This document shows positions 3,750-25,844 of a DNA stretch of 64,000 nucleotides, in pieces. The stretch comes from Treponema sp. (GTDB lineage Bacteria > Spirochaetota > Spirochaetia > Treponematales > Treponemataceae), in assembly GCF_024400915.1 (NCBI RefSeq), contig NZ_JAKSLX010000014.1; one strand, written 5' to 3'. Numbering within the stretch: position 1 is the stretch's first letter; the number at the start of each line of letters is the position of its first letter. The notes under the pieces were generated by a model. That model did no database searches, had not been told where the DNA came from, and saw only the letters and a program-made list of their open reading frames with translations. A program made the position numbers and the translations under genes.

Positions 3750-4625
3750 CTAAAAATCAAACAGCAGCTGTTGTGGCTTCTCCTGTTCCGGAAAATCCCG
3801 CATATATCCAAAAATCTCATCCGGCTTATTCATAATACCATTTCTTCCGCAAAAATCATTGAAACGTCTGGTCAAATTCCAATAATCCGGACTTGAAAGC
3901 TCGTAGGCATTCCAACCGAATCTATCAAGATATCTTTGCTTAAGTCCCGGAAAATGCTTGTCCAGAGCGGCGTAATAATATTCCCGGTCTCCTTCCCGCA
4001 ATGTAAGTCCCATTCCAAAGGCAATGATGCCCACAACCTTGGCTTCGAGACAATAATCCAGGATTCCGTTCAGATTTTCCATCGTATCGTTCAGATAAGG
4101 CAGAACAGGTGTCATCCAAACAACCGTAGGGATTCCATGGTCACGGAAGATTTTAAGAGCCTCGAAGCGTTCCCGGGTGGTGCTGACATTTGGTTCCACG
4201 ATGCGGCAAAGATTCTCGTCATAGGTTGTGAGCGTCATCTGAACCACGCATTTTGCTTTTTTGTTGATGGATTCCAGAAGATCCAAATCCCTTAAGATTC
4301 TGGTGGATTTTGTCTGGATCGCAAGACCAAAACCATAATGGTCAATGATCTCCAGGCATTTTCTGGTGAGACCCAGCTTTTCTTCCAGATGGATGTAAGG
4401 ATCGCTCATGGATCCGGTGCCGATCATGCATTTTTTCCGCTTGCGTTTGAGCGCGTCCTCCAATAGTTCAGGCGCATTGACCTTTATCTCAATGTCCTCA
4501 AAGGGTTCCGGAGTATGATAGCATTTTGATCTGGCATCGCAATAAATGCAGCCATGGGTACAGCCCCGATACAGATTCATTCCGTTCTGGGCCGACAATA
4601 TGGATTTTGCGTTTATCTCGTGCAA
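3750..4625 (-). CDS. radical SAM protein (SPL-like family)
   Basis: CxxxCxxC cluster motif CTHGCIYC near the N-terminus. TTG start 6 nt after the esterase stop. Confidence 0.8.
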   Translation of the reverse strand: MHEINAKSILSAQNGMNLYRGCTHGCIYCDARSKCYHTPEPFEDIEIKVNAPELLEDALKRKRKKCMIGTGSMSDPYIHLEEKLGLTRKCLEIIDHYGFGLAIQTKSTRILRDLDLLESINKKAKCVVQMTLTTYDENLCRIVEPNVSTTRERFEALKIFRDHGIPTVVWMTPVLPYLNDTMENLNGILDYCLEAKVVGIIAFGMGLTLREGDREYYYAALDKHFPGLKQRYLDRFGWNAYELSSPDYWNLTRRFNDFCGRNGIMNKPDEIFGYMRDFPEQEKPQQLLFDF

Positions 4626-4631
4626 TTATGT

Positions 4632-5405
4632 TTATCCAAAAATCTCAGGAATGAATTTGCGGACGCATTTATCCCAGAATGGCATGTCATGTGTGCCTGA
4701 ATCTTCCCAATAGACATGTGCCACCTTGTTGTCCTCAAGGAATTTATTGAAATCCCTGTTATTCTCCAGAAGGAAATCCTCTGTTCCGCAGGCCATGTAG
4801 ATTGCAGGCATCTGTTTCTTTTCTTCCATGATTTTCCTTACCAGAATTTCAGGATTGTTTTCGCTTTCATGGACTTTCTCAAGGTCGCCAAAGCATTCAC
4901 GGTAATATTCGTAGTTGGCATGGCTGTCTGGTGTTCCAGGTTTCATTCCTGTAATCTTCTTTATGATCAATGCTGAAGAAAGAGCGATTGTGGTTCCAAA
5001 AGTTTCAGGATAGGCAAAGGCTGTATGAAGGGCACCAAATCCGCCCATGGAAAGTCCCATGATATATGTGTCTTCCCTCTTTTTTGCAAGGCCAAAATTC
5101 TTTCTGATATATCCGATTATCTCTTCACCGATAAGCGACTGGAAACGATGTCCTGTGGAAATTCCATTCAACCAGAATCCATTCTCGCCGTTTGGAATAA
5201 CGATCGCAAAATTGTATTTGTTTGCGAATTCCTCTGGAATCCAGTTTCCCGCATCCCCTGTATAGCCGTGAAGCAGCAGCAAGGTTTTGATTGGACGCTT
5301 TGTATATTCTGTTTCCTGATCAACGTAATCGTTTGGAAGGATCACCTGAAAAGAAATGTTGCGGATAAGGCAACGAGAAAAATATTTTACTGTTAATTGA
5401 CTCAT
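4632..5405 (-). CDS. alpha/beta hydrolase, esterase family
   Basis: Nucleophile elbow GLSMGG; esterase D/tributyrin-esterase-like layout. Confidence 0.75.
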   Translation of the reverse strand: MSQLTVKYFSRCLIRNISFQVILPNDYVDQETEYTKRPIKTLLLLHGYTGDAGNWIPEEFANKYNFAIVIPNGENGFWLNGISTGHRFQSLIGEEIIGYIRKNFGLAKKREDTYIMGLSMGGFGALHTAFAYPETFGTTIALSSALIIKKITGMKPGTPDSHANYEYYRECFGDLEKVHESENNPEILVRKIMEEKKQMPAIYMACGTEDFLLENNRDFNKFLEDNKVAHVYWEDSGTHDMPFWDKCVRKFIPEIFG

Positions 5406-9672: not shown

Positions 9673-10227
9673 TTATTCTGTCTGATATCTTGCCCGTTCT
9701 CCGCCAATCAATTTTGGACGACACCAGGCAGCGACGACATGAGCATTTCCAACAACATTTTGCGCCGGATGCACAGGCACCGCAACATCCTTCAGATGCA
9801 TTCCTATAAGGACATCACCAATATCCACACCGGCACTTGCCTTTACATGCTCTACGACAACAGCATTTTCAAAGCCATAGAAGGCAGCGGTCGCAAAAGA
9901 TCCACCACCATGAAGCCATGGAACAACGGATACAGGCTCATATCCATATCTGTCAGCACAATCCTGCTCAATAACCAGAGCACGATTAAGATGTTCGCAG
10001 CACTGGCAGGCAAGATATATTCCATTTGATCTCAAGATTTCGTGGGCTGTTTCGAATACAGCTTTCCCAATTTCCTCTGAAGAATCCTTTCCCATCTTTC
10101 CACCTGCAATCTCGCTGGAAGAACAGCCAATCACAAAAACAGATTCCTTTTTCTGAGGATGCTCCTGAAGAAATTCCGTAAGCAACTTTCTGACCTGCGA
10201 TTTTACATTCTCGATTTCTGCGCTCAT
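9673..10227 (-). CDS. TIGR01440/UPF0340 (DUF436) family protein
   Basis: Motifs IGCSSSEI, CEHLNRALV, GVDIGDVLIGMHLKDVAVPV and RPKLIGGERARY. Start set to ATG 10227, 1 nt after the upstream stop. Confidence 0.85.
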   Translation of the reverse strand: MSAEIENVKSQVRKLLTEFLQEHPQKKESVFVIGCSSSEIAGGKMGKDSSEEIGKAVFETAHEILRSNGIYLACQCCEHLNRALVIEQDCADRYGYEPVSVVPWLHGGGSFATAAFYGFENAVVVEHVKASAGVDIGDVLIGMHLKDVAVPVHPAQNVVGNAHVVAAWCRPKLIGGERARYQTE

Positions 10228-10606: not shown

Positions 10607-10815
10607 GAGATGATTGTAGCATAAATCAAGACCGAAAAAAAGCATTGATATCCCTGTCAAAACAGTTGATTTTGGCTTTTTTTTGGCTTAAATCCGCACG
10701 AATTCAAAACCCTTTAAAAATCGCTCTAAAACGCGTCATTTTAACTCAGTCGATAAATTATTCGTTTTTTTTAAATCGACGCGTATACGTGAATCCTAGA
10801 GCGGTGTTTTTTGTG

Positions 10816-10934
10816 TACCTATATTATAGGTATTGCGGTATTTTCTACCTATTTTTTACCTACTTTTATGATATATTTTTACCTATTTTCTAAGTATTTT
10901 GGTATTTTTTACCGAATATTTAGGTATATTGGTA
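10816..10934. promoter_or_regulatory. cluster of GGTA/TACC repeats upstream of parA (candidate centromere/operator)
   Basis: Ten GGTA/TACC tetramers in ~120 bp. They include the palindrome TACCTATA-T-TATAGGTA (10816-10832) and two GGTA-T5-TACC units (10837-10849, 10901-10913). A TATAAT-like box follows near 10967. Confidence 0.5.
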
Positions 10935-11009
10935 TGGAAATTTTTGTATTTTTATTATATAATTTTTACATAGGCGAAAAAAATTAAATTTTGGGAGGAC
11001 CCATTTTTT

Positions 11010-11774
11010 ATGAAAATAATAACAGTTGCGCTCCAGAAGGGTGGGGTAGGAAAAACATCAGTTGCTGTAAGCCTTGCGGTGGAATTATCGAAGAAAGGAA
11101 ACACGATCCTTATCGATGCTGACCCTCAGGGAAATGCCACAACATGGCTCGATATCCAGACCATGGAATATGAGCTTGCGGATCTCCTTAATGGAAAATG
11201 CACCCTTGAAAAATGCATCACAAAGACAAACACAGAAAACCTTGCGATCATTCCAACTGCAGGTCTTGGCGGAGAACTTAAGGAATACAGCGAGAACAAG
11301 GCAGGCGGAAACCAGGGGAAAATCAAAAAGACACTCAAGGAAGTTGCCAAGAATTTTGATTACTGCGTCATAGACACTTCTCCAAGCTTTGGAAACTTTG
11401 AACGTTCGATTTTCTATGCGACAAACGAAATCATAGCTGTGCTTCAGCTTGATGAATTCTCAAAAGACGGACTGCAGATCTTCAATGACCGTTTGACAAC
11501 CTTTATCAACGACAACCTTGAAGAGGATGAAGCAAGACCTGTTTTCAACAAAATCGTGTTCAACGCAAAGGATGAACGAATTTCCCAGCAGACAATCATT
11601 CTCAAGCAGTTCATGCCATTGAAAGACCATGGATACAACCTTTATGTGATTCCGGTAGACCAGGCATACAGAAAAGCACAGAGCGCCCATATTTCCGTTC
11701 AGGATTTTAGCGGCACAAAAAGAGAAACATTGGAAACATTGAAATCATTGGCTGATGATTTGACAAAGGAGTAG
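11010..11774 (+). CDS. parA: ParA/Soj-type partition ATPase
   Basis: Deviant Walker A KGGVGKTS at the N-terminus, 254 aa. GGGAGG upstream. Confidence 0.9.
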   Translation: MKIITVALQKGGVGKTSVAVSLAVELSKKGNTILIDADPQGNATTWLDIQTMEYELADLLNGKCTLEKCITKTNTENLAIIPTAGLGGELKEYSENKAGGNQGKIKKTLKEVAKNFDYCVIDTSPSFGNFERSIFYATNEIIAVLQLDEFSKDGLQIFNDRLTTFINDNLEEDEARPVFNKIVFNAKDERISQQTIILKQFMPLKDHGYNLYVIPVDQAYRKAQSAHISVQDFSGTKRETLETLKSLADDLTKE

Positions 11775-11778
11775 GAAA

Positions 11779-12102
11779 ATGGCAGGAAAAAAGATTTCAC
11801 AGGAACAGCTCGCCGGAAACACAGAAGTTTTTGCAGATTTGCTTACTTCTGTTCCATCCAAGAAAACACCATCTGCCGTTCAGGCAGCTGCAGAAGAAAC
11901 AAAACCGGAAAAGGATGTCCATCTTACAATGCTTGTTAAGGAATCCACCAGAAAGGCATGGAAACAGTTCTTTATTGAACATGACCTGAACACAACACAG
12001 GGAATCGAAATTGCGATGCGCCATCTTATTGATGACATTGAAAACAAGAAATACAAACTTTCAAAGGGAGGTCTGTCTAAAATTATAGACGACCAGGATT
12101 AA
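11779..12102 (+). CDS. small partition adaptor, ribbon-helix-helix-like (ParG/omega-like)
   Basis: 107 aa, starting 4 nt after parA, with AAGGAG upstream. The C-terminal VHLTMLVKESTRKAWKQFFIEHDLNTTQGIEIAMRHLIDD looks like strand-helix-helix. The role is inferred from position. Confidence 0.55.
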   Translation: MAGKKISQEQLAGNTEVFADLLTSVPSKKTPSAVQAAAEETKPEKDVHLTMLVKESTRKAWKQFFIEHDLNTTQGIEIAMRHLIDDIENKKYKLSKGGLSKIIDDQD

Positions 12103-12137: not shown

Positions 12138-12820
12138 CGACTACTGAAATCCACTTGTGGACAACGGTAGTCGTTTTTGTTTAAAAAAGTGGAGTTTGGT
12201 AGTCATTGTATTTTGATAGACAGAATTTCATGGACTTTGGTAGTCGAATAATGGAAAAAATGTAAAATTCTGGTGGAGTTCGGTAGTTGTTGCTGAATTT
12301 GGTAGACAGAATTCAATATATTTTGGACTTTAGTAGTCGTGGACATTGGTAGTTGATTGATTCAGACTGCGAAGGCGTGGAAGGGTGCGGAGCAGTAAAA
12401 CGAAAGTTTTACCGAGGGTGACCGAGCCCTGGAAGGCCGTTTTGTGGAAGAAGGTCCGCCAAGAGTTAAATCAAGAAAAAGTGGATATAGGTAGTTTTTA
12501 GTGGTGGATTTCAGTAGTTGTTCATCGCAACAAAGAAAAATGGATATCGGTAGTCCTTGGTTTATATGATTTCTGGAGAATGGACTTGAGTAGTTATTAA
12601 AATATTTCAGGCGGATTAAAAACAACGGAATTCAAAATGAATCGTTGAAAGTTTCAACTACTTGTGGTATTATTTATGTAGTCTACTAACTAATCTTTTT
12701 GACTTGTAAAAAGTCGTTTTGGCAATTTTTTCAGGTTCTAGGATAACGGTAGTCGAAACTGTGGAGTTGAGTAGTTGCTTTTTGGACATCAGTAGTCTGA
12801 AATTTGGACTTGGGTAGTTG
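12138..12820. repeat. iteron field (candidate oriV): 14 direct copies and 1 inverted copy of TGGAnnTnnGTAGTyr
   Basis: Direct copies start at 12158, 12190, 12231, 12274, 12324, 12340, 12482, 12505, 12541, 12581, 12740, 12762, 12783 and 12805. The inverted copy is at 12138-12153 and a degenerate copy at 12293. The field is noncoding and lies between the par genes and rep. Confidence 0.85.
12356..12479. repeat. G-rich conserved module, copy A (candidate structured RNA or ssDNA signal)
   Basis: 12356-12460 differs at only 6 of 105 positions from 21988-22092. GC is ~58% by hand count, within AT-rich flanks. Hairpins are GTAAAAC-GAAA-GTTTTAC (12395-12412) and AGGGT-GACCGA-GCCCT (12415-12430). Confidence 0.6.
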
Positions 12821-12835
12821 AATCTCTCTGTAACT

Positions 12836-12905
12836 CCTTGCATTACAACAAATTATAACGTTGTTAATTAATAATAATATAAATTCATAATGGAATTACA
12901 AAAAA
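12836..12905. promoter_or_regulatory. AT-rich stretch (candidate DNA-unwinding element and rep promoter)
   Basis: Almost pure A/T between the last iteron and the rep ATG. Confidence 0.4.
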
Positions 12906-13883
12906 ATGAATGATTTATCTACGACAAAGCGGGAAACCGTCATCCAATCAAACTCAATAAGCCGGGGCATCTACACCTGTAGTCCTTTGGCCAGAAAGCT
13001 CATTGCCTATTGTATTCTTAAAATCGATTATTATCCACAGAAAATCGAAAATTCGGAGATCAACACTATACATCATTTCAAAAGCAGCTTCTCAATCTCC
13101 GAATTCATAAACAAGCTTGGAATCTCAAAAGGCTCAAATACCTATACCCAGGTAAAAAGAGCTGTTGAGGAATTGACCACAAGTGTAATCCAGGTTGAGA
13201 ATACGGAGGAGAAATACAAGGCCTTTACCTGGTTTTCTTCTGCTGACTACGATAAGAAGAAAGATTTGATCGAACTGGAATTCAACCAGCAGATTGGTCT
13301 TGCGATTATCGAATGGAAAGAGAAAAAACAGTATTCGGCAATGAACATAAAGATTATCGGTGAGCTTCAGAGTTTTTATGCCCTCCGTTTTTTTGAGATC
13401 GCCTGTTCCTGGTATAATTCGAAAGGCCGCTACGGTAACGAAAAGGATCAGTGGAAATTTGATCTTTCTGTTGAAGAAATAAAACGTATGTTCAAGATCG
13501 ACAAGGATGCATACAAAGACCGCATGAACAACTTTATTACAAAGGTCGTAAAGAATCCTCTTGAGGAATTGAACAGAATAAACAAGGATTTTACCATTTC
13601 CTATACAAAAATCGTGGAGCATCACAGGACGGTTGGCTTTACCTTTACCTGTACCCAGTGTGATGTTATAAAAATTGAGGCTGACGACACTTCGTACGTG
13701 AAGGAAGAGAAGCGACAGCTGAATGATGAGACAATCGAAATGGAATATTACAAGACAAAATATCCAGAGGAATGGGCGGAAGCAATGAAGCTTGCGGAAG
13801 AACAGAATGAGCTTCCTTTTGATTTTGCTCCTGCGACTGAAGCCCGCGCATTGAATTATCTTCTGGAAAAGGGATTGAAGTAG
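12906..13883 (+). CDS. plasmid replication initiator, Rep_3-like
   Basis: The N-terminal VIQSNSISRGIYTCSPLARKLIAYCILKI matches the Rep_3 pattern (N.li.a.y.L...e.rl). 325 aa, directly downstream of the iterons. Confidence 0.75.
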   Translation: MNDLSTTKRETVIQSNSISRGIYTCSPLARKLIAYCILKIDYYPQKIENSEINTIHHFKSSFSISEFINKLGISKGSNTYTQVKRAVEELTTSVIQVENTEEKYKAFTWFSSADYDKKKDLIELEFNQQIGLAIIEWKEKKQYSAMNIKIIGELQSFYALRFFEIACSWYNSKGRYGNEKDQWKFDLSVEEIKRMFKIDKDAYKDRMNNFITKVVKNPLEELNRINKDFTISYTKIVEHHRTVGFTFTCTQCDVIKIEADDTSYVKEEKRQLNDETIEMEYYKTKYPEEWAEAMKLAEEQNELPFDFAPATEARALNYLLEKGLK

Positions 13884-13921
13884 TCTTTTAGCTGCAGTTA
13901 TTCTGCGACTACCAATGTCCA
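13871..13921. repeat. convergent pair of iteron-like sites at the rep 3' end
   Basis: A degenerate GGGATTGAAGTAGTCT (13871-13886) contains the rep TAG stop. An inverted exact TGGACATTGGTAGTCG lies at 13906-13921. Confidence 0.6.
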
Positions 13922-13994
13922 ATTTAGTTGTTATATATAGAAGAAACTTTATATTTATAAAAAATATCGTAAAATTTGTAAAACCGGAGTTTTT

Positions 13995-15446
13995 ATGAAA
14001 AAACAGATTTTTAATCCTTATATGCCTTCATGGGAATATGTTCCTGATGGAGAGCCTCATGTTTTTGGTGATCGTGTTTACGTTTATGGTTCTCACGATA
14101 TGTTCAATGGTTGCGTTTTCTGTCTTGGAGATTATGTCTGTTATTCTGCACCTGTTACAGATTTGACAGACTGGAAATATGAGGGCGTGATCTACAGAAA
14201 GGACCAGGATCCTGTTCAGGATGGAAGAATGGTTCTTTATGCGCCAGATGTTACTGTTGGTCCTGATGGACGTTATTACCTTTATTACGTTTTTGACAAG
14301 GTTGGCTTTGTTTCTGTTGCCGTTTGTGACACTCCAGCTGGAAAATATGAATTCTATGGCCATGTTCACTACAAGGATGGAACAAGAATGGGAGACAGGG
14401 AAGGTGATATGCCACAGTTTGATCCTGCTGTAATCACCGAAGGAAATAAAACATACCTATATACCGGTTTTTGCGGTAATCACATGAAGGACAGAATCGG
14501 TGCGATGGCAACAGTTCTTGGTCCTGATATGCTGACCGTTGAAGAAGAGCCTGTTGTAATCATTCCTGGTGATGAATATGCGAAAAAGGATGTTGTTGTG
14601 GAGACAGGATGCAAGTATAAGCTGGATTCTGTTGAAAATTGGCCTGCATTCAAGAACCATGAATTTTTCGAGGCACCTTCTATCCGTAAGGTTGGTGACA
14701 CATATTATTTTGTTTTCTCTTCTGCCGTCATGCATGAGCTTTGCTATGCTACAAGCAAACAGCCAACCAGTGGATTTGTTTACGGTGGTGTCATTGTTTC
14801 AAATTGTGATGTCGGCATTGATTCTTATAAACCTGCTGACATGCCTGCCGCATACGGTGCGAACAATCATGGTGGCTTTGAGCTCATCAATGGCGAGTAC
14901 TACATGTTCTATCATCGTCACACAAACGGTAACTGGTATAGCCGCCAGGGATGTGCAGAAAAAATCAGGATTCTCGAGGATGGAACAATTCCACAGGTTG
15001 AAATCACTTCCTGCGGTTTGAATGGTGGTCCTTTGAAGGCAGAAGGGGAATATGGAGCTTACATCGCATGTAACATGTTCGTTCCTTCAAATCCAAATAA
15101 ATATGTGGGAGCTCACGGATGTCCGACAATCACCCAGGATGGTGTTGATGGGGACCAGAATCCAGGTTACATCAAAGACATTCCAGAAGGCACTGTGATT
15201 GGATTCAAATATTTTGAATTCAAGAATGTAAAGAAGATCACGATTACTACCCGCGGATATTTCTATGGCGGTTATGAAGTCAGAACAAAGTGGGACGGTC
15301 CTGCTGTAGGATTCATTGATTGTCTTTCCAGCAATTTCTGGGAAGAATATTCTGGTGAAGTTTCTATTCCTGATGGCGTTTCTGCTTTGTATCTTGTTTC
15401 AAAAGCATCTGGAAATGGTCAGCTTGCGAAAATCAAATTTAATTAA
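13995..15446 (+). CDS. glycoside hydrolase family 43 protein
   Basis: N-terminal NPYMPSWEYVPDGEPHVFGDRVYVYGSHD is typical of a GH43 subfamily. No signal peptide. Confidence 0.8.
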   Translation: MKKQIFNPYMPSWEYVPDGEPHVFGDRVYVYGSHDMFNGCVFCLGDYVCYSAPVTDLTDWKYEGVIYRKDQDPVQDGRMVLYAPDVTVGPDGRYYLYYVFDKVGFVSVAVCDTPAGKYEFYGHVHYKDGTRMGDREGDMPQFDPAVITEGNKTYLYTGFCGNHMKDRIGAMATVLGPDMLTVEEEPVVIIPGDEYAKKDVVVETGCKYKLDSVENWPAFKNHEFFEAPSIRKVGDTYYFVFSSAVMHELCYATSKQPTSGFVYGGVIVSNCDVGIDSYKPADMPAAYGANNHGGFELINGEYYMFYHRHTNGNWYSRQGCAEKIRILEDGTIPQVEITSCGLNGGPLKAEGEYGAYIACNMFVPSNPNKYVGAHGCPTITQDGVDGDQNPGYIKDIPEGTVIGFKYFEFKNVKKITITTRGYFYGGYEVRTKWDGPAVGFIDCLSSNFWEEYSGEVSIPDGVSALYLVSKASGNGQLAKIKFN

Positions 15447-16456: not shown

Positions 16457-16483
16457 CGGAAATTTTTTCGCCGTGAATTTGGG

Positions 16484-16499
16484 TGGATATTGGTAGTCA
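16484..16499 (+). repeat. isolated iteron-like 16-mer TGGATATTGGTAGTCA
   Basis: Intergenic, 28 nt after the yitT-like stop. The 15-mer is identical to the copy at 32-47. Confidence 0.6.
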
Positions 16500-16681
16500 T
16501 ATTCAGATTCATGATTTCCTCTTTTTTCTATAACAAGAATTTATTAATGTAAGAACATCTAACCGCCTCTGACTCAGTAAAAATTTGTTTTATTACATGA
16601 AATTTAAGTTATAATGAATTCGAAATAAAAATATGAAAATGGGGTTCTGTTTTCATAAGTCTTATACAAAGAGAGAATGAA

Positions 16682-18550
16682 ATGAGTTTGTTCGGATTGT
16701 TCATGGTGTTCTTTGGAATTTCCACGATTGTCGGTGTTCCAATTTTATCTTCTTTTCAGGTTACACAGATCAAAGGTTCTACTTGGGGAGATTGGGTTTC
16801 TAGTCTGGCTGCGTCTCTTGGACCTGCTGCTGGTGTTTTTATTGTTGTATGCATCATCATTTATTTCTGGATGAAGCCTTTGACTCAGCTGTTGAAGGAT
16901 GCTGAAACAAGGGAGCTTACTCCGGCTGAAAAAATGAAAGCTCAGAAAATCATGACCAGAACAAATGTCTTGACTGTAATCAGTATACTTCTTGGATATC
17001 CTGTTGGAAACGGTACGACAATCATCATCAAGACCATGGCAGGTAAGGTTAATTACAACAAGACTGACCTTATAGTGATTATGATTTTGATTTTCCTTTA
17101 TGGATTTACTGCAATCCAGTATTCCGTGAATTGTTTCAATTCCATGGCCAGAAAGCAGCTTGCCAAATTGAAGATTACAAGCACAGAAGGCATAAGGACC
17201 ACCCATTTTACCATTTCACTTGGTTTGACAATCGCAGATGTTGTTTTCCTTATGGGTTGGCATTTGTTCTGTTCCGGATATTCAGCTGTGAGAAATGAAT
17301 GGGAGATGGAATTGTTTATCAGAAAGGCTTTGTTCTCGTTGGGAGAATGTGTCTTTATTGCAACTCCTTTGGTATATCTGCTTTTGAGTCAGTTGAGAAA
17401 ACGTTTCTATGAAACAATCCGACAGATTGAGATGCTTAGAAAAGGAGGTGACCTTGTTTCTCGTCTCAGCATCGGAACATTTGATGACTTTGGTGTTGTT
17501 ATGACAGAAATGAATAAGCTCATGGATTTCCTCCGTGATGCCCTTTCTCATCTCAGGGTTGAAAATTCAAATGTAGGACAAGGTGCTGATGATCTGTATA
17601 TGGTTTCCGAAGCATCTTCTGCTGGTGTTGAACAGATTATTTCATCTTTTGGAAGGGTTCATTCAGAAAATGAACAGCAGGACAAGCTCCTCAACAATGC
17701 AAGGGTTAGTATTGAAAAGCTTAATGAAGACGCTATTTCTGCAAGCAACACAATGGAAGAACAGGCCCGTGATGAAGAGATGAACGCCGCTTCAATCACA
17801 GAAATGGTAAGAAATATCCAGTCCATTTCTGAATTGATTTCAAGAGCACAGATCCTTTCCACAGAACTTTCCCAGTCTTCTGTTGCCGGTACGGAAGAGG
17901 TTGAAAAGACTCAGGCTGTCATTGATAAGATCGAGGAAAAATCAAAGAAGATGATCGAGGTCATAAATGTTATCCAGAAGGTTGCCACACAGACTAATCT
18001 TCTTGCCATGAATGCCGCAATCGAAGCAGCTCATGCCGGCGCCGCAGGTAAAGGTTTCTCAGTCGTTGCAGATGAAATTCGAAAGCTTGCGGTGAACACA
18101 CAGAACCAGGCAAAGAACATCAGCGATCTTATTACAGAAATCACTGAATCCATAGATATCGGATCCATCACAATGAAAGGCACAAAGAATCTGTTCTACA
18201 AGATTCAGGATGGCATTACGGAGCAGAATGAGGTTGTAAAGAAAATCAACGATACAATGGATACACAGTCTGCAAGTGCAAATATAGTTCTTGCAAAAGT
18301 TAATCAGATTTCAAGACAGATCCTTGATGTAAATCAGATCATCAAGAATCAGGCAAACTACACAAATGAAATCAAGTATGGAATCGAAGAGATCGTAAAC
18401 CTTTCTGATAATGTAAATACAGCGATTGATGAGTCGGAAAATGTTATCCGCGTATTTGCAGGCTCAATCGAGACCGTTAAAGAGAAGGCAGAGGAAAACA
18501 GAAGTTCCGTTGAATCAATCACAAAGGAACTTAACAAGTTTACACTGTAG
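16682..18550 (+). CDS. methyl-accepting chemotaxis protein
   Basis: Signalling-domain core [33 protein letters not shown], with N-terminal TM segments and a HAMP-like linker. Confidence 0.9.
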   Translation: MSLFGLFMVFFGISTIVGVPILSSFQVTQIKGSTWGDWVSSLAASLGPAAGVFIVVCIIIYFWMKPLTQLLKDAETRELTPAEKMKAQKIMTRTNVLTVISILLGYPVGNGTTIIIKTMAGKVNYNKTDLIVIMILIFLYGFTAIQYSVNCFNSMARKQLAKLKITSTEGIRTTHFTISLGLTIADVVFLMGWHLFCSGYSAVRNEWEMELFIRKALFSLGECVFIATPLVYLLLSQLRKRFYETIRQIEMLRKGGDLVSRLSIGTFDDFGVVMTEMNKLMDFLRDALSHLRVENSNVGQGADDLYMVSEASSAGVEQIISSFGRVHSENEQQDKLLNNARVSIEKLNEDAISASNTMEEQARDEEMNAASITEMVRNIQSISELISRAQILSTELSQSSVAGTEEVEKTQAVIDKIEEKSKKMIEVINVIQKVATQTNLLAMNAAIEAAHAGAAGKGFSVVADEIRKLAVNTQNQAKNISDLITEITESIDIGSITMKGTKNLFYKIQDGITEQNEVVKKINDTMDTQSASANIVLAKVNQISRQILDVNQIIKNQANYTNEIKYGIEEIVNLSDNVNTAIDESENVIRVFAGSIETVKEKAEENRSSVESITKELNKFTL

Positions 18551-18573
18551 TTCAGATAACGGATAAAAATGAA

Positions 18574-18611
18574 AACGCCATCGAAACAGTTTGAGTTGCT
18601 TCGATGGCGTT
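18574..18611. terminator. 12-bp hairpin, probably the terminator of the minus-strand gene
   Basis: Stem AACGCCATCGAA/TTCGATGGCGTT. A T-rich tract follows on the minus strand only. Confidence 0.6.
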
Positions 18612-18630
18612 TCTGTCTATGGTATATAAG

Positions 18631-18655
18631 CTCCTCGGAAACGGGGAGTTTTTTT
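18631..18655 (+). terminator. Rho-independent terminator of the MCP gene
   Basis: CTCCTC-GGAAAC-GGGGAG hairpin followed by TTTTTTT. Confidence 0.65.
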
Positions 18656-18682
18656 AGTTGTGCTTTCCTGATTCATCGGAAA

Positions 18683-19609
18683 CTATTCCTTCTTTTTCTT
18701 AAGGATCTTGATAAGTTTAACAATCAATCCTACACGACCAAAAAGCAGCCAGAAGAAGAATGCAAGAACTGCAAGCAAAGGAACTCCAAAGACGATGAAA
18801 TAGAAGATTCCCATCAGCAATGAAGCCATGAAATTTACAAAATCGCTGCCGAATTTTCTGAAGTTTTCTCCTAAGTCTGGCCATTCAAAACCGCTGTCAT
18901 TGAAGCCTGTAGGAAGCTCGATGCCGATATAGATTGTTGAATAGTCAACCTGATTTGAAAGTCGTTTAAGTCTTCCTTCCATAACTTCGATTTCTGAGAT
19001 CACATTGTTCAGCTGGCGTTCAATCTCGAGAAGATCCTTTATGTCCTTTGCCTGGGAAAGATATGATTCAAGTTTGTCCCGCATGATTTTCTTTGTGTCC
19101 AGACGGGTCTTCAAGTCATAGAAATCTTCTGTGACATCCTGGCTGTTTACCGAGCGATACTTTATTTTTCCAAGCTCACCTGCGGCGGTCATGGCTTCCT
19201 CAAATTTTGATGAAGGAATCTTTACTGTCGCATGGTAGGAATATTCATAGGTCGATGAGTCTGTGATATAACCGCCAAAACTCTTCGCAAATTCTGTGAT
19301 GAGATTTTCTGAATTTGAAAGGGTGTCGCTTTCAAGTGTGATGTTTCCGGTCTTGATCAGCTTTCTTTCGACGTTGATGTTGTTGTTTCCATAGGCGGCT
19401 GATTCTTCCACATAGGATTCCATTTCCATTGCATCCGCCATAACGAAACTTGAATTTACGGTGTTCGCGGTTTTCATTTTGGCCATTCTTGGAGCTTCAA
19501 CCTGTTTTGTAAGAACTCCGTTGTCAGCGTATTTTTTATTGCCACAACCAGCCAATCCAAAAAGGATCAATCCTGTTAATGCCATGATAGTGATTTTTCT
19601 TGCTTTCAT
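18683..19609 (-). CDS. DUF4349 domain lipoprotein
   Basis: Lipobox LAGC. The central region matches the DUF4349 pattern (GGYITDS, VKIPSSKFEEAM, QDVTEDFYDLKTRL), followed by a coiled coil and C-terminal TM segments. Confidence 0.8.
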   Translation of the reverse strand: MKARKITIMALTGLILFGLAGCGNKKYADNGVLTKQVEAPRMAKMKTANTVNSSFVMADAMEMESYVEESAAYGNNNINVERKLIKTGNITLESDTLSNSENLITEFAKSFGGYITDSSTYEYSYHATVKIPSSKFEEAMTAAGELGKIKYRSVNSQDVTEDFYDLKTRLDTKKIMRDKLESYLSQAKDIKDLLEIERQLNNVISEIEVMEGRLKRLSNQVDYSTIYIGIELPTGFNDSGFEWPDLGENFRKFGSDFVNFMASLLMGIFYFIVFGVPLLAVLAFFFWLLFGRVGLIVKLIKILKKKKE

Positions 19610-19743
19610 ATAAACCTCACGAAATATATATCTTATAAAACAATTGTGGCTCTAATGTAACAAAAAATATTTTGGAAATCATTAGAGTTTTCTAAACTGG
19701 TTCTAATGTTTGCATAAAATTCGTAACGTAGTAAAATGGAACC

Positions 19744-21906
19744 ATGACTTTTAAACCTTGCATCAACGCTAAAAACCTAAAAAATGATATTCTTTCCGGA
19801 ATCATTGTTGCATTTGTCTCAATTCCTATCGCAATGGGATATGCCCAGATCTCCGGACTTCCTGCGGTATATGGACTTTACGGTTCCCTGTTTCCTGTTT
19901 TGATTTATGGATTGCTTGCTTCCTCGCCTCAGTTTGTTGTTGGTGTGGATGCCATGCCTGCCGCTATGATCGGTTCGTCCCTTGCAACCCTTGGGATTGT
20001 TTCCGGTACTGATGCCGCTTTGCAGATTGTTCCTTCCATTTCTTTGATGGTCGGTGTGTGGTTTGTGGTTTTCCGAATTCTGAAGGCGGGAAGGGTAGTA
20101 AAATACATCTCAAATCCAGTGATGGGAGGATTTATTTCCGGTGTTGGATTTACGATCATTCTGATGCAGGTTCCAAAGCTTTTTGGAGGAAATCCTTCGA
20201 CTGGCGAAGTGGTGCAGCTTGTGGCAAACATCATCAGGGAAATTCCGAATTTCAATCTTCTTTCGTTTCTGCTTGGACTTGGAACAGTTGTGGTTATCCT
20301 TGTTTCTAAGAAATTCCTGCCAAAATTTCCAATGTCCATTGTTATGCTTGGTGTAGGGATGGTTCTGACTGCTGTGTTTAAGATAGATCAGTATGGAGTT
20401 AAATTGCTTTCTGCCGTGGAAGGCGGATTCCCACATTTCTATGTTCCTGATGTGCTGCTTCTCGGAAACCATTTTCTTGACTATTTTATTTTGAGCCTGA
20501 CCATTTCCCTTGTTATAATGGCTCAGACCTTGCTGGCCTCAAACAGCTATGCTTCCAAATACGATTATGAGATCAACAACGATCAGGAGCTGGTTGCCTA
20601 TGCCGCAATGAACATTACGGCCGGACTTACCGGAAGCTGTCCAATCAACGGCAGTGTTTCACGATCGGCCATCGCAGACCAGTTTTCCTGCAAGAGCCAG
20701 GTGATGTCCATTACTGCTTTTATGACAATGCTGATTGTGACCCTTTTCTGCACAAGATTCTTTGTGTATCTTCCTGTACCGATTCTGACCGGGATTGTCA
20801 TGGGCGCTCTTATCGGAATTCTGGACATTAAGCAGGCCAAGCGACTGTGGAAATGCAACAAGCCTGAATTCCTGATTTTTGCCATGGCATTTCTTGGTGT
20901 CCTGTTTTTTGGAACAATTTACGGAGTGATGATCGGCGTGATTCTTTCCTTCATGTCGGTGGTGAAAAAGGCTGTTGTTCCTCCACGGGCATTTCTTGGA
21001 AAAATTCCAGGCCATCATGGCTATTATGATCTGAAGAGGAATAAGAGTTCCCGTCCGATCCAGAATACGGTGCTCTATCGTTTTGGCGGAAACCTGTTCT
21101 TTGCCAACATTGGCACTTTTGTGAATGATATTGAGGAAGCCGTTGCCGAAGACACAAAATTCGTGATTGTTGATGCAAGCGGCGTTGGAAACGTTGATAT
21201 AACTGCGGTGGATAAGCTGATTGCCTTGTATGAGAAACTGTCGAAAAAGGGAATTCAGTTCTATCTTGCGGAACAGCAGGGACATGTGAACGATCTGATT
21301 CGTCAGTATGGTGGTGACAGGCTGATTGAGGAAGGTAAGGTTAGAAGGACATTGTCTCTGGCATTGCGAGCCTGTGGATTTGAGAAACCATATCCTCTTG
21401 AAGGACTGACTGAGGGAACCAACTACAGCTATGTGGAATCCAGCGAGAAGCTTGCCGAATTCGAGTGGGCATTTGGAAAGGACGCCGAAGCAAAAATGGA
21501 ACAGCTGGCAAACGAAATTGTGGAAAACATTTCTTCTTATGCGGCCAGCACCGATGCAGCCCAGATTGAAAAAATCGATCTTGCGGAAGTTGAGGAGAAA
21601 ATCAGCTGGGGAAAAATCGGACTTTTCGACGAGGAGGAACTTCTCGAGCATCTTGAGATCAAGCTTGAGCAGCTGGTTTCTAATGGAAAGCTTTCCATGG
21701 AACAGCTTAAGGCACTGGAGAAGCTTATTGAGCACAGAAAAGAGGTTGTCGAGGAAAAAGTCAATCTTCTTAATCCAAAGGCGATCGAGCTCCTTCACAG
21801 GCGAATGGAAATTGTTGAAAGCCATCTGAAAAAAATAAGTCCAAAGGAATTTGAGCACATTAAGGCATTCAAGGAAAATCTGCGTCAGAAAATCAGGAAG
21901 AACTGA
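19744..21906 (+). CDS. SulP family anion transporter with a STAS domain and a ~170-aa coiled-coil C-terminal extension
   Basis: SulP membrane core, then a STAS-like region (VLYRFGGNLFFANI, VIVDASGVGNVDITA). The extension from about 21406 is rich in E/K/L. Confidence 0.9.
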   Translation: MTFKPCINAKNLKNDILSGIIVAFVSIPIAMGYAQISGLPAVYGLYGSLFPVLIYGLLASSPQFVVGVDAMPAAMIGSSLATLGIVSGTDAALQIVPSISLMVGVWFVVFRILKAGRVVKYISNPVMGGFISGVGFTIILMQVPKLFGGNPSTGEVVQLVANIIREIPNFNLLSFLLGLGTVVVILVSKKFLPKFPMSIVMLGVGMVLTAVFKIDQYGVKLLSAVEGGFPHFYVPDVLLLGNHFLDYFILSLTISLVIMAQTLLASNSYASKYDYEINNDQELVAYAAMNITAGLTGSCPINGSVSRSAIADQFSCKSQVMSITAFMTMLIVTLFCTRFFVYLPVPILTGIVMGALIGILDIKQAKRLWKCNKPEFLIFAMAFLGVLFFGTIYGVMIGVILSFMSVVKKAVVPPRAFLGKIPGHHGYYDLKRNKSSRPIQNTVLYRFGGNLFFANIGTFVNDIEEAVAEDTKFVIVDASGVGNVDITAVDKLIALYEKLSKKGIQFYLAEQQGHVNDLIRQYGGDRLIEEGKVRRTLSLALRACGFEKPYPLEGLTEGTNYSYVESSEKLAEFEWAFGKDAEAKMEQLANEIVENISSYAASTDAAQIEKIDLAEVEEKISWGKIGLFDEEELLEHLEIKLEQLVSNGKLSMEQLKALEKLIEHRKEVVEEKVNLLNPKAIELLHRRMEIVESHLKKISPKEFEHIKAFKENLRQKIRKN

Positions 21907-21909
21907 TGG

Positions 21910-22151
21910 TGGATGATGGTAGTCGCTGTCGGTGGATATTCGTAGTCATATTGAGTGGACTTCAGTAGTTGTGGACATTGGTAGTTGATTGATTCAGGTT
22001 GCGAAGGCGTGGAAGGGTGCGGAGCAGTAAAACGAAGGTTTTACCGAGGGTAACCGAGCCCTGGAAGGCCGTTTTGTGGAAGGAAGTCCGCCCGATGTTG
22101 AATCAGAATGAAGTGGATGTGAGTAGTCATTCGGGTGGATGTTGGTAGTTG
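21910..22151 (+). repeat. second iteron cluster (6 direct copies) flanking module copy B
   Basis: Copies at 21910, 21933, 21956, 21972, 22114 and 22136, all fitting TGGAnnTnnGTAGTyr, spaced 16-23 bp. Confidence 0.85.
21988..22112. repeat. G-rich conserved module, copy B
   Basis: 21988-22092 aligns without gaps to 12356-12460 with 6 mismatches. Hairpin GTAAAAC-GAAG-GTTTTAC at 22027-22044. Confidence 0.6.
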
Positions 22152-22226
22152 TGGAAAATCGATTTGTTCAATTCTAGGAAATCTCACTTATATTAAATTT
22201 CTGTCAGACTTTCTATAATCGTTTCT

Positions 22227-23309
22227 ATGAGTGATATTTTATTTGAAAAATTCAAGAATGATTTTCGTGTTGGCGCTGCCTTGAACGGTTTTATCTATGA
22301 TGACCAGGCTGTCGCTAAATTTGAGAAAAGGATTGGAAAGAAACTTCCGTTTGATGTGAAGGACATTAAGGATGGCGAGATTGTAAAGAACCATTTTAAC
22401 CTTATTGTGGCTGAAAACGACACAAAGATGGAACGTATTTATAAGGCGGAGAATACTTTTGATTTTGAGACCGCCGACAAATTTGTGAAATGGGGAAAGG
22501 AAAACAATAAGGATATCCGCTGGCATACCCTTGTCTGGCATAATCAGTCTCCAAAATGGATCTTTGAGGATGGAAACGGCGGAAAAGCCACAAAGGAGCA
22601 GCTGGAGAAACGTACCCGTGACTACATCTATGCTGTTGGCCAGCGTTACGCAAATGACATCTGTTCTGTTGATGTCGTGAACGAATGCATTTCCGACAAG
22701 AAATTCGCATTGAGGACTCCTGAGGACCGTTCCCAGTGGCTTGATATTATGGGTCCGGATTATGTCGACAAGGCCTTCTATTGGGCCAAGGAAGCATTTC
22801 CAAAATCAAATCTGGTCATAAATGACTACAACCTTGAAATGATTCCTGGCAAGCGGAATGGAATGTATGAATTTGTCAAGGGAATGCTTTCCCGCGGGGT
22901 TCCTGTGGATACTGTTGGGCTCCAGATGCACATCAACATGGCTTATCCTCCTGTAAGCATGATTGAAGAGACGATTGAACTGTATGGAAGTCTTGGATTG
23001 AATGTGATTGTCACAGAGATGGATGTTTCTGTTTACTATGATTTTAAGGACGGAAAGGAAGAATTTGAGCAGCGCAAGGAATTCACTGCGGAATTGATGG
23101 AGAAGCAGGCTGCCCGTTATGCTGAGCTTTTCCAGTGCTTCAGAAAGGAAGCCCAGAAAGGAATCCTCAAGGATGTTGTGCTTTGGGGTATTACAGATGC
23201 TTTCAGCTGGAAGAATCACTTTCCTGTTCCTGGCAGAATGGACGCACCTCTCCTGTTTGGTGTGAAAGGTGAGCCAAAGCCTGCATTTGAAAGCGTCATG
23301 AAAATCTAG
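22227..23309 (+). CDS. endo-1,4-beta-xylanase, GH10
   Basis: GH10 motifs WHTLVWHNQSPKW, VDVVNE, INDYN and VTEMDV. No signal peptide. Confidence 0.9.
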   Translation: MSDILFEKFKNDFRVGAALNGFIYDDQAVAKFEKRIGKKLPFDVKDIKDGEIVKNHFNLIVAENDTKMERIYKAENTFDFETADKFVKWGKENNKDIRWHTLVWHNQSPKWIFEDGNGGKATKEQLEKRTRDYIYAVGQRYANDICSVDVVNECISDKKFALRTPEDRSQWLDIMGPDYVDKAFYWAKEAFPKSNLVINDYNLEMIPGKRNGMYEFVKGMLSRGVPVDTVGLQMHINMAYPPVSMIEETIELYGSLGLNVIVTEMDVSVYYDFKDGKEEFEQRKEFTAELMEKQAARYAELFQCFRKEAQKGILKDVVLWGITDAFSWKNHFPVPGRMDAPLLFGVKGEPKPAFESVMKI

Positions 23310-24265
23310 AAAGGTTGAATCTTCAGCATGGTGATTGCCTGCTGGAGCAATGGACTTGAGTAGTCGTAGATTGAGGAATCTTCGTACCCGCGGAAACTTC
23401 CTTCCAGCATCATTGAAAGATAAAGGATGATGTCGTACCAGAGGAGTCTGCGGGTTTCTTTATAATTGAACTGGCTCTGCCCGTATCCGTCAAAGAAGGA
23501 AAGTGTGTATTTCTGGAGACGGAAACGGTCTTCCATGAGGGGATCGCCGAACAATGCCCGTTCCAGGTCGATGATTCCTGTAATTTCGTCGTTCTGAATG
23601 AAAATGTTTCCTTCCCATAGATCATAGTGGACAAGCGATGGTGTTACATTGCAGTCGAAGCATCTTCTGTCTTTCTCGAGAAGCTCGAAAAGTTCTTCCT
23701 TTGAGATGAAGAAATCCATTTTCTTTGATTCCGCGTCAGAAACCACATTGCCGAGAAGGAATGATGTGAAATCGAACAGGGTCTCGAAAGTCTCGGAGCC
23801 ACCCAGGGTTTTGTATACTGGATTCTGGATTTCCGCGATTTCCTTTACCAGCTTTCCAATCTTATAGTCGATTTTTTCTTTTGTCTCTTTTGGGAGTGTG
23901 TCTTTTATGTCGGAATATCTCTGGCCTTCGAGAAATTCCATGAAGAAGTATTTGCCGGAACAGATTTTCCGGCTGCCGTCAAAATAGTATACTTCTGGAA
24001 CTTTGACGGTCAGCTTGTCCTTGAGGAGTGAAAGTGCGGAAACCTCAGCCTCCATCATCTCAACTTCGTTTTTCATAAGACAGGATCTGTCGTCTGTTTC
24101 AATTTTCAGAATCGACTGGAAATCATCCGAAAAAGTGATTTTATAGATGGCATTGAAAAATCCGCTGTCGATTTCTTTGCATTCAACGAATTCTCTTTCT
24201 GGAAAAGCCTGTTTTGCCATTTCCATGATTGTCTCGATAGGCTGTCTGTTCTTAGAGTGTCCCAT
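23306..24265 (-). CDS. phosphotransferase (APH/choline-kinase-like) family protein
   Basis: Catalytic loop LVHYDLWEGNIF and metal-binding IDLERA. Its stop overlaps the xylanase stop by 4 nt. Confidence 0.75.
   Translation of the reverse strand: MGHSKNRQPIETIMEMAKQAFPEREFVECKEIDSGFFNAIYKITFSDDFQSILKIETDDRSCLMKNEVEMMEAEVSALSLLKDKLTVKVPEVYYFDGSRKICSGKYFFMEFLEGQRYSDIKDTLPKETKEKIDYKIGKLVKEIAEIQNPVYKTLGGSETFETLFDFTSFLLGNVVSDAESKKMDFFISKEELFELLEKDRRCFDCNVTPSLVHYDLWEGNIFIQNDEITGIIDLERALFGDPLMEDRFRLQKYTLSFFDGYGQSQFNYKETRRLLWYDIILYLSMMLEGSFRGYEDSSIYDYSSPLLQQAITMLKIQPF
23351..23366 (+). repeat. iteron-like 16-mer TGGACTTGAGTAGTCG inside the kinase CDS
   Basis: The 14-mer is identical to the origin copy at 12581. 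It is read on the minus strand as D-Y-S-S-P. Confidence 0.55.
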
Positions 24266-24551
24266 TTTTCACCTGTGTCCTGTTTAAGCTATAAAACATA
24301 ATGACTTTTCGTAAAACACAAATTTTTAAATCTGAAGATATAACACAATGTTATAAATGCACTATATTTAGATTCTACATTATTTAATGTAGTTATGCAA
24401 AACCTGTGATCTGCAATATCTTCAACTCCTTCCTAATTATTGCATGGATTTCAAAGGATTTCCAATGGTTTCATTGTATTTCTATTGTAATTAATAGTAA
24501 AAATAATATAATTGTTTCTCATCAACATTCATATAAAAAGAGGCCTGTAAA

Positions 24552-25844
24552 ATGAGTTCGCTTCAAAATACAGAAGTTATTCTTCAAATTTTACTTTCTG
24601 TTGGACTTATTGTAATTGTCGCAAAATACTTTGGTATTCTTGCAAGAAAGATTGGCATTCCAGAGGTTGCTGGAATGATCGTTGCTGGTCTTTTACTTCG
24701 TTTTATTCCATGGTTCCATAATTACGGCGGAACTGATTCGAACATCATCTACAACGAAGCAAATCAGTTTATTTCCTACATGTCAGAGATTGGGGTTATC
24801 CTTATCATGTTCTCAGCGGGATTGAGCACCAATCTTAAGTCTTTGATAAAATCTGGTGTGAAGTCTACTGTTATCGCAGCTTTTGGTGTTTTGGTTCCTT
24901 TGATCATGGGAACAATCATGGCCTGCTGTTTCTGGGGCTTCCATTCTTTTGGTTCCTTGGAATTCTTTAAATGCGTGTTCATCGGAACAATCCTCACTGC
25001 GACTTCTGTAAGCATCTCAGTTGCCGTTTTGAAGGAATTTGGAAAGATCAAGACGGATGTTGGCCAGACCATCATCAGTTCTGCGATTATCGATGATGTT
25101 TTTGGCATTATCGTCCTTACAATTGTTCTTGGTGTTTCTTCCGGAAAAGGCGGATACCTTGGAATCATCCTTAAGACAATTCTTTTCTTTGTCTGCGCTC
25201 TTGTTGTTGGATTCATTGTTTACAAGCTCTTTAAATGGTATGACAGACGCCATCCAAGATCCCACAGAATTCCAATCTATGCTTTGGGTGTTGCCTTGAT
25301 TTTTGCATACTGCGCAGAAAAATTCTTTGGAATTGCAGACATCACAGGTGCCTATATTGCGGGTATTGTTCTCTGCAATCTTCACGATGCTTCATATCTT
25401 GAATCAAAGATTGACATCAACTCATACATGTTCTTCAGCCCAGTGTTCTTTGCCGGCATCGGTCTCAAGACTGACCTTTCTGGAATGTCGATCGATCTTC
25501 TGTGGTTTGCGATCGCATTCGTGATCATCGGCTGTATCTCAAAGATTATCGGTTGTGGTGGAATATCTAAAGCTTTAGGTTTTTCTTGGAAGGAAAGCTA
25601 CCAGATTGGTCTTGGTATGATGGTTCGTGGTGAGGTTGCGTTGATCGTGGCTACAAAAGGACTTTCTACAGGGCTCATTGACCCAAAATATTTTACGGCA
25701 GTTATACTTCTCATTATTGTTTCTTCCATGCTGGTTCCTATTTTGCTTAAGCGTGCGTTTATGGGAAAAAATAAGCCGTCGGAAATTGGACCTCAGCCAG
25801 TTGTTGAATCGGCTCCTGCAGGAACAAATTCTACAGAAAACTAA
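24552..25844 (+). CDS. cation:proton antiporter (CPA2-like)
   Basis: About 12 TM segments with a Na+/H+ exchanger family pattern (EVAGMIVAGLLL, FSAGLS). Confidence 0.85.
   Translation: MSSLQNTEVILQILLSVGLIVIVAKYFGILARKIGIPEVAGMIVAGLLLRFIPWFHNYGGTDSNIIYNEANQFISYMSEIGVILIMFSAGLSTNLKSLIKSGVKSTVIAAFGVLVPLIMGTIMACCFWGFHSFGSLEFFKCVFIGTILTATSVSISVAVLKEFGKIKTDVGQTIISSAIIDDVFGIIVLTIVLGVSSGKGGYLGIILKTILFFVCALVVGFIVYKLFKWYDRRHPRSHRIPIYALGVALIFAYCAEKFFGIADITGAYIAGIVLCNLHDASYLESKIDINSYMFFSPVFFAGIGLKTDLSGMSIDLLWFAIAFVIIGCISKIIGCGGISKALGFSWKESYQIGLGMMVRGEVALIVATKGLSTGLIDPKYFTAVILLIIVSSMLVPILLKRAFMGKNKPSEIGPQPVVESAPAGTNSTEN

Follow-up and report, generated by a model that had tools for sequence, protein, structure and literature searches.

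A remote accessory iteron cluster carrying a duplicated G-rich module in a Treponema Rep3/ParA replicon

Introduction

Why should six repeats of the kind found at a replication origin lie between the genes for a transporter and a xylanase, kilobases away from the initiator gene of their replicon? The question is raised by positions 21910-22151, here called site B, of a 64-kb stretch of Treponema DNA that was analyzed at its full length and is referred to as the window. Initiator titration or pairing by accessory iterons is a known kind of control, and to our knowledge extra iterons reduce initiation via titration and handcuffing in every iteron replicon that has been studied (P1 incA, F incC, RK2). 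The initial annotation took site B for a diverged duplicate of the origin core that could either titrate or handcuff the initiator or act as a second firing site. We found no published description of this Rep3 replicon family of rumen and gut Treponema. Close Rep relatives are likewise missing among annotated plasmids (PLSDB), the best match being a Treponema saccharophilum rrn plasmid with 35% identity.

The replicon and its origin

The replicon is a Treponema Rep3/ParA replicon. Its rep gene (12906-13883, + strand) encodes a Rep3 initiator with WH1 and WH2 (PF01051, 4e-23; PF21205, 7.7e-8). The partition module (10810-12102, + strand) consists of a repeat block (10810-10935), parA (11010-11774) and the gene for a 107-aa partner (11779-12102). 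The block upstream of parA contains about 12 (T)ACCTA/TAGGTA/GGTAT repeats in both orientations and is kept in relatives (3765-3900 in relative L005, 8225-8345 and 7617-7685 in relative L017); these ACCTA-type repeats are probably a type Ib par centromere/operator. In L017 a second, inverted par repeat block, neighboring two iterons, lies 580 nt upstream of the first.

The motif TGGA-N5-GTAGT was matched 26 times in the 64-kb window compared with 0.14 matches expected from shuffled sequence, and none of 100 shuffles reached 26. Fifteen copies fall between the parA operon (11010-12102) and rep. This gap holds an accessory array of 11 irregularly spaced iterons (12140-12594, + strand, one iteron on the - strand), situated between the par operon and the rep promoter and also containing three TAGACAGRA motifs, as well as four phased iterons (12741-12818, + strand; at 12741, 12762, 12783 and 12805) that are 21-22 bp apart. 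From the phased iterons to the start of rep the GC content drops to 15-20%, and four phased iterons with an AT-rich stretch abutting rep are an arrangement common to all relatives.

The promoter predicted at 12645-12683 (+ strand; TTGAAA, 17 nt, TG-n-TATTAT) is a consensus match only, with 10 of 12 positions agreeing, and lies 230 nt from the rep start. Its -10 element is bracketed by the inverted half-iterons AACTAC (12656-12661) and GTAGTC (12678-12683), and promoter and half-iterons are kept together in the relatives L001, L005, L006 and L010. The site looks like a Rep-dimer autorepression operator. Binding of the iteron by a monomer and of the operator by a dimer is the arrangement of F RepE and pPS10 RepA. 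The predicted origin core that is conserved in the family is 12645-12905, made up of promoter and half-iterons, the four phased iterons and the AT-rich stretch. Both GC skew and the strand of the genes change over at about 12 kb, in keeping with an origin at that place; the cumulative skew shows one minimum only, also at about 12 kb, and no inflection at 22 kb, at a resolution that is low over 10 kb.

The motif might instead not belong to Rep, being the centromere of ParA and the 107-aa protein or the site of another regulator, which would make site B an additional centromere or a region that regulates the GH10 xylanase gene. We regard this as very improbable. The main array does start directly after the par operon, like sopC and parS in F and P1, and orphan copies of the motif are intergenic and near gene ends. 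However, a separate conserved repeat family occupies the usual place of type Ib centromeres and operators upstream of parA, relatives have motif clusters downstream of rep, four phased copies abut rep, and half-site inverted repeats bracket the promoter. As the par operon has its own, distinct repeat family, the iterons are most likely sites of Rep. The anatomy of the motif, two blocks one helical turn apart, fits a Rep3 site. The phased iterons, the half-site operator, the separate par repeats and the skew flip together lead us to read the motif as the iteron of Rep and the par-rep gap as the origin; TGGA-N5-GTAGT is most likely the binding site of the Rep3 initiator, for which it is our candidate.

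Single iterons are also scattered over the window. Six such orphans were found (32, 9657, 13908 on the - strand, 16484, 23351 and 41065), whereas about 0.14 matches would be expected in the whole window. At least three of them are intergenic and three lie no more than 45 nt past a stop codon on the same strand, and they recall the dispersed RctB sites on Vibrio chromosome 2 (Chr2). L005 has orphan iterons at 10089 and 6745 (- strand); two orphans, one past the SulP stop and one past the rep stop, are conserved in this relative. A second motif, (G)TAGACAGRA(T), occurs four times in the window compared with 0.59 expected (12120, 12217 and 12303 on the + strand, 18611 on the - strand). It recurs within the iteron arrays of relatives, for example at 5092 and 5262 in L005 and at 11314 in L017, and was not found at site B (21910-22151).

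Parts and setting of site B

Exact search with the pattern TGGANNNNNGTAGT on the + strand returned the six direct iterons of the initial annotation, at 21910, 21933, 21956, 21972, 22114 and 22136. All six match the full 9-nt origin iteron consensus exactly, and they lie 9.0-9.4 kb from the phased core. Surrounded by cargo genes, the cluster sits in a 320-nt gap between a SulP/STAS gene (19744-21906) and a GH10 xylanase gene (22227-23309); gene annotation thus agrees with the earlier description of an intergenic setting that has no rep or par gene beside it. No promoter or terminator was predicted around site B. On the 3' side of its iterons, 22160-22249 has a GC content of 22-27%.

Read part by part from its sequence, site B is a mosaic. 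Iteron B1 (21910-21923, + strand) starts 4 nt past the SulP stop codon and is the ortholog of the lone orphan iteron at 10089 in L005. Iteron B2 (21933-21946, + strand), one of the six exact pattern matches, is identical together with its 3' flank (21931-21955, CATATTGAG) at 23 of 25 positions to an orphan iteron and flank at 16482-16506, where the iteron itself (16484-16497, + strand) lies between the YitT and MCP genes. This likeness suggests repeated exchange among the dispersed iterons. Iterons B3 and B4 (21956-21985, + strand) abut one another at a spacing of 16 nt and are copied from 12324-12353. They are followed by copy B of a G-rich module (21988-22108, + strand; 53% GC), which is free of the iteron consensus, and by B5 and B6 (22114-22149, + strand), generic iterons of the TGGAT subtype with 22-nt spacing.

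The duplication shared with the origin region

A repeat finder reported a direct duplication of 172 nt, 12324-12495 against 21956-22127, with 88% identity at a spacing of 9632 nt. Base-by-base alignment revealed that the likeness is unevenly distributed. Between 12324-12460 and 21956-22092 there are 8 differences over 137 nt (94% identity), and the G-rich core alone (12368-12460) differs from copy B at 4 of 93 positions. Right of 12460 the identity drops to 69% (19 differences over 61 nt), most of the residual likeness being iteron consensus. The right-hand iteron pairs 22114/22136 and 12482/12505 score 0.77 against one another, compared with 0.72-0.79 for other iteron pairs of the same subtype. 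Since the pair is no closer than others of its subtype, the arrangement of an iteron, a spacer of about 6 nt and another iteron is generic phasing; homology of the right flank to the origin copy was rejected for the same reason, and B5 and B6 do not demonstrably belong to the duplicated segment. The view of site B as a duplicate of 12324-12520 holds for the abutting iterons and the module, which were copied (94%), and is not borne out for the generic right-hand iterons (69% identity right of 12460).

The source is not the origin core, as the initial annotation had it. The abutting source pair (12324-12353, + strand) lies in the par-proximal accessory array, where iteron 12324 has orthologs in the relatives L005 and L010, and the module (copy A, 12356-12476, + strand; 51% GC in a surrounding of 33% GC) is an insertion compared with these two and absent from every relative examined.

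We considered an assembly chimera or artefact, which independent Logan contigs of run SRR17543911 from the same sample ruled out. Three of these contigs match the window at 100% identity (12375-14053, 18008-22029 and 22007-24716). Each of them ends within a 37-nt stretch common to both module copies (TGCGAAGGCGTGGAAGGGTGCGGAGCAGTAAAACGAA), inside which the breaks are accounted for because a k=31 graph must branch there. In this way the contigs cover both junctions of site B and the right junction of the origin copy. Whatever its consequence may be, site B is very probably a duplicated set of Rep sites.

Relatives of the replicon

About 20 related replicons, with Rep proteins 69-87% identical to that of the window, all carry TGGA-N5-GTAG(T) in the par-rep gap. 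Relatives of Rep at 69-85% identity occur in 13 GTDB species representatives, each of them named Treponema, and metagenomic contigs add further relatives with up to 87%. The closest ones, L005 (Rep 87%) and L010 (Rep 85%), were aligned at the origin. The contigs of relatives reach 194 kb (L018), and housekeeping-type genes such as enolase lie near par-rep in L001-L004 and L008 (4205-5596). These observations suggest that the related replicons are chromid-like secondary replicons of gut and rumen Treponema. One lineage with a Rep of 85% identity (L031, 1540-2529; also L032) has an additional gene of 329 aa, faintly matching RepA_C, inserted where the iteron array meets the par operon in the others. 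A search for iteron triplets in IMG/VR found none.

When conservation of site B was checked, the cluster proved to be missing from the closest relative, which is one half of what the initial annotation named as a refutation. L005 is the only relative with SulP-GH10 synteny; there the gap measures 93 nt and holds the one conserved iteron directly after the SulP stop. The SulP proteins of the window and L005 are 75% identical, and the rest of the SulP-GH10 gap does not align. Within the 10-kb flanks available for the relatives, no iteron cluster was found more than 2.3 kb from rep. The six-iteron cluster was found in a single lineage and sample; with the cluster in one lineage and one iteron in L005, conservation gives no sign of selection on site B.

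Accessory clusters as such are normal for the Treponema Rep3 family, given that in distant relatives the region directly downstream of rep holds 10-13 iterons of mixed orientation (11029-11473 in L006/L015; L016-L022, for example 10964-11366 in L017), placed like incA and incC. The subclade of the window (window, L001, L005, L010) has only 0-2 iterons downstream of rep and would have lost most of the usual array. Accessory arrays in the family thus appear to be fluid, and the lineage of the window would have rebuilt one at a remote place.

The G-rich module

Copies of the module are known from two places, both within iteron arrays of one replicon. Its absence from relatives was established with blastn and nhmmer over 33 loci, and as about 20 relatives are without it, we regard the module as a lineage-specific insertion rather than as part of the origin core. 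Searches beyond the family gave the same picture. Blastn found no match in PLSDB or phage genomes, an exact scan with a module 21-mer found none in 185,579 species genomes (GTDB representatives), and two module 21-mers had no match in IMG/VR. Six JGI metagenome matches to a module 19-mer were dismissed as chance, as they lie on contigs of 57-70% GC with no homology beyond the seed. Concatenated six-frame peptides of the module had no match at E<=10 among 5.8 billion proteins. Against Rfam nothing reached the gathering score in the whole window and nothing relevant appeared at E<=10 for site B, so that no known structured RNA family is matched. No promoter or terminator is predicted to flank the module copy in the origin region.

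A small basic ORF is open in the same frame on the + strand of both copies (12385-12501 and 21999-22148; 38 and 49 aa), and the core substitutions hit three of its codons, two of the changes being synonymous. As it lacks both a ribosome-binding site and a credible homolog, it probably does not represent a gene. A HMMER match of this ORF (E 3e-11) turned out to be a protein with six flavodoxin repeats, the score being the sum of six one-helix matches of about 25 bits; the flavodoxin assignment has no Pfam support and was rejected as repeat-inflated.

The module ends in a 7-nt inverted repeat, TGATTCA/TGAATCA. A MITE-like element does not fit, since this terminal inverted repeat is only 7 nt long, no target-site duplication was found and the window holds two copies, with none in the 33 loci or in the genome, viral, metagenome, plasmid and phage collections searched. 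The folding signals are borderline. Folding of the minus strand as RNA gave z of about -3 in both copies. Overall, fold z ranged from -1.0 to -3.0 depending on the strand, and the plus-strand values of -1.6 to -2.3 are not significant; neither are the DNA folds.

These properties bear on the idea that the actual unit is a cassette, functional or mobile, in which the G-rich module is joined to two abutting iterons, with the other iterons of site B incidental. Such a cassette might encode a small structured RNA, offer a strand-specific site for priming or for a cofactor, or be a non-autonomous element with iteron arrays as its landing places. No other part of the duplication is as well conserved as the module, the core of which contrasts with 31% divergence just to the right; it stands out in GC content as well, and its status as an insertion relative to all relatives, its terminal inverted repeat and its minus-strand fold would suit the idea too. 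All four core substitutions fall at positions predicted to be unpaired, but this has a chance probability of about 0.12. Against a cassette stand the two known copies confined to the iteron arrays of one replicon, the absence of the module from all the collections named above, the lack of matches for its translated ORFs, the non-significant plus-strand and DNA folds, and the fact that no target-site duplication, promoter or terminator was found. Moreover, an ancestral origin iteron lies inside the copy at its left end, so that a segmental copy fits better than transposition. We consider the cassette unlikely. A more elaborate version of it, less likely again, would make the iteron pair and module a new origin-associated functional cassette, for instance a structured RNA or a strand-specific cofactor or priming site, that works with Rep, was acquired by this lineage and then copied onto the remote orphan iteron. 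A datA-like control locus would thus be seen at its birth, in place of the lost inc array downstream of rep.

How site B may have arisen

We favor a segmental copy made onto an existing iteron. The common ancestor with L005 would have had one orphan iteron directly past the SulP stop codon. In the lineage of the window, a G-rich sequence of about 120 nt would then have entered the accessory array beside the origin. In a later step a segment of about 140 nt, comprising two abutting iterons and the module, may have been copied to the orphan site, with recombination or template switching between iterons as the probable route, and further iterons would have been added at site B. The direction of copying, from the origin to site B, is indicated by iteron 12324, which is ancestral at the origin as evidenced by its orthologs in L005 and L010 and is part of the copy. 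That a conserved orphan iteron grew into a six-iteron cluster follows from the only syntenic relative, which has one iteron there. The copied iterons show no changes at consensus positions compared with about 1.4-2.9 expected, a difference that is weakly informative.

A role in titration or handcuffing

By analogy with known systems, Rep titration or handcuffing would be the most reasonable role of site B. On balance we think it probable, by a modest degree, that site B is a six-site accessory cluster for the replicon's own Rep3 initiator that restrains replication in this manner. Rep monomers would bind the six iterons, lowering the amount of free Rep, and Rep-Rep bridges could pair site B with the origin iterons by handcuffing or looping. 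With site B the number of sites rises by about 40% over the 15-16 of the origin. Its position 9.6 kb into one replichore implies that it is duplicated almost at once after firing; lying in the right replichore, it would be doubled within seconds, and the doubled site might act as a datA-type brake on re-initiation. This model assigns the G-rich module no role, although no other part of the duplication is as well conserved. Site B may be either selectively kept or a tolerated by-product of iteron recombination.

Several known systems resemble site B in part. Like P1 incA and F incC, it consists of extra origin iterons outside the minimal origin. Those loci need no DUE and lower copy number by initiator titration and origin handcuffing. 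Their position, abutting rep within less than 1 kb, is matched by the array downstream of rep in distant relatives, whereas site B lies 8 kb from rep between the transporter and xylanase genes. It also differs from them by its non-iteron module of about 120 nt and by being one lineage deep. In RK2 oriV the iterons (5 + 3 + 1) form an essential group and upstream groups that reduce copy number, but unlike site B all of these lie within about 700 bp.

The distance is better matched by the RctB sites of Vibrio cholerae Chr2 and by Escherichia coli datA, where initiator sites kilobases from the origin are duplicated soon after firing and serve as a titration sink. [quoted passage not shown] The Chr2 sites are on a large secondary replicon, and like Chr2 the window has scattered single iterons. 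RctB is, however, a larger initiator with extra site types (39-mers, crtS) and control by Dam methylation, none of which was seen here, and function was demonstrated by ChIP and genetics in Vibrio whereas that of site B is inferred from its sequence.

The earlier suggestion of a second firing site found no support. According to this reading Rep would start replication at site B, directly or by looping, as at the alpha and beta origins of R6K. Those origins are distant iteron-bearing sites in contact with a seven-iteron array through initiator looping, and distant sites with at most one iteron fire in R6K via pi-mediated looping. Six consensus iterons followed by the 22-27% GC stretch at 22160-22249 would be in keeping with such a site. 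However, the AT-rich stretch is the promoter/leader of the GH10 gene and is equally AT-rich in L005, which does not have the cluster. Site B furthermore has no four-iteron phased set, no conserved AATTAATAATAATATAA block, no operator and no TAGACAGAA motifs, the cumulative GC skew turns only at about 12 kb (with the low resolution given above), and the relatives are without a site of this kind. In R6K the alpha and beta origins do fire, and nothing at site B indicates firing. We therefore judge a second origin to be very unlikely and retain restraint of replication by titration or handcuffing as the preferred role.

Discussion

Site B is an accessory iteron cluster, unusually remote and freshly born, that carries an orphan module. 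Current understanding of iteron control would be unchanged whether or not the cluster titrates Rep, and the G-rich module is the sole part of the finding that could hide something new.

The finding matters as part of a comparative series in which accessory iteron arrays are lost and rebuilt within Treponema Rep3 replicons. The series runs from an array downstream of rep in distant relatives, through almost none in the subclade of the window and an orphan iteron at the SulP end, to the six iterons found here. If site B titrates Rep, it would illustrate from nature how a remote sink of the datA type comes about; otherwise it would show that iteron arrays can seed ectopic copies of themselves.
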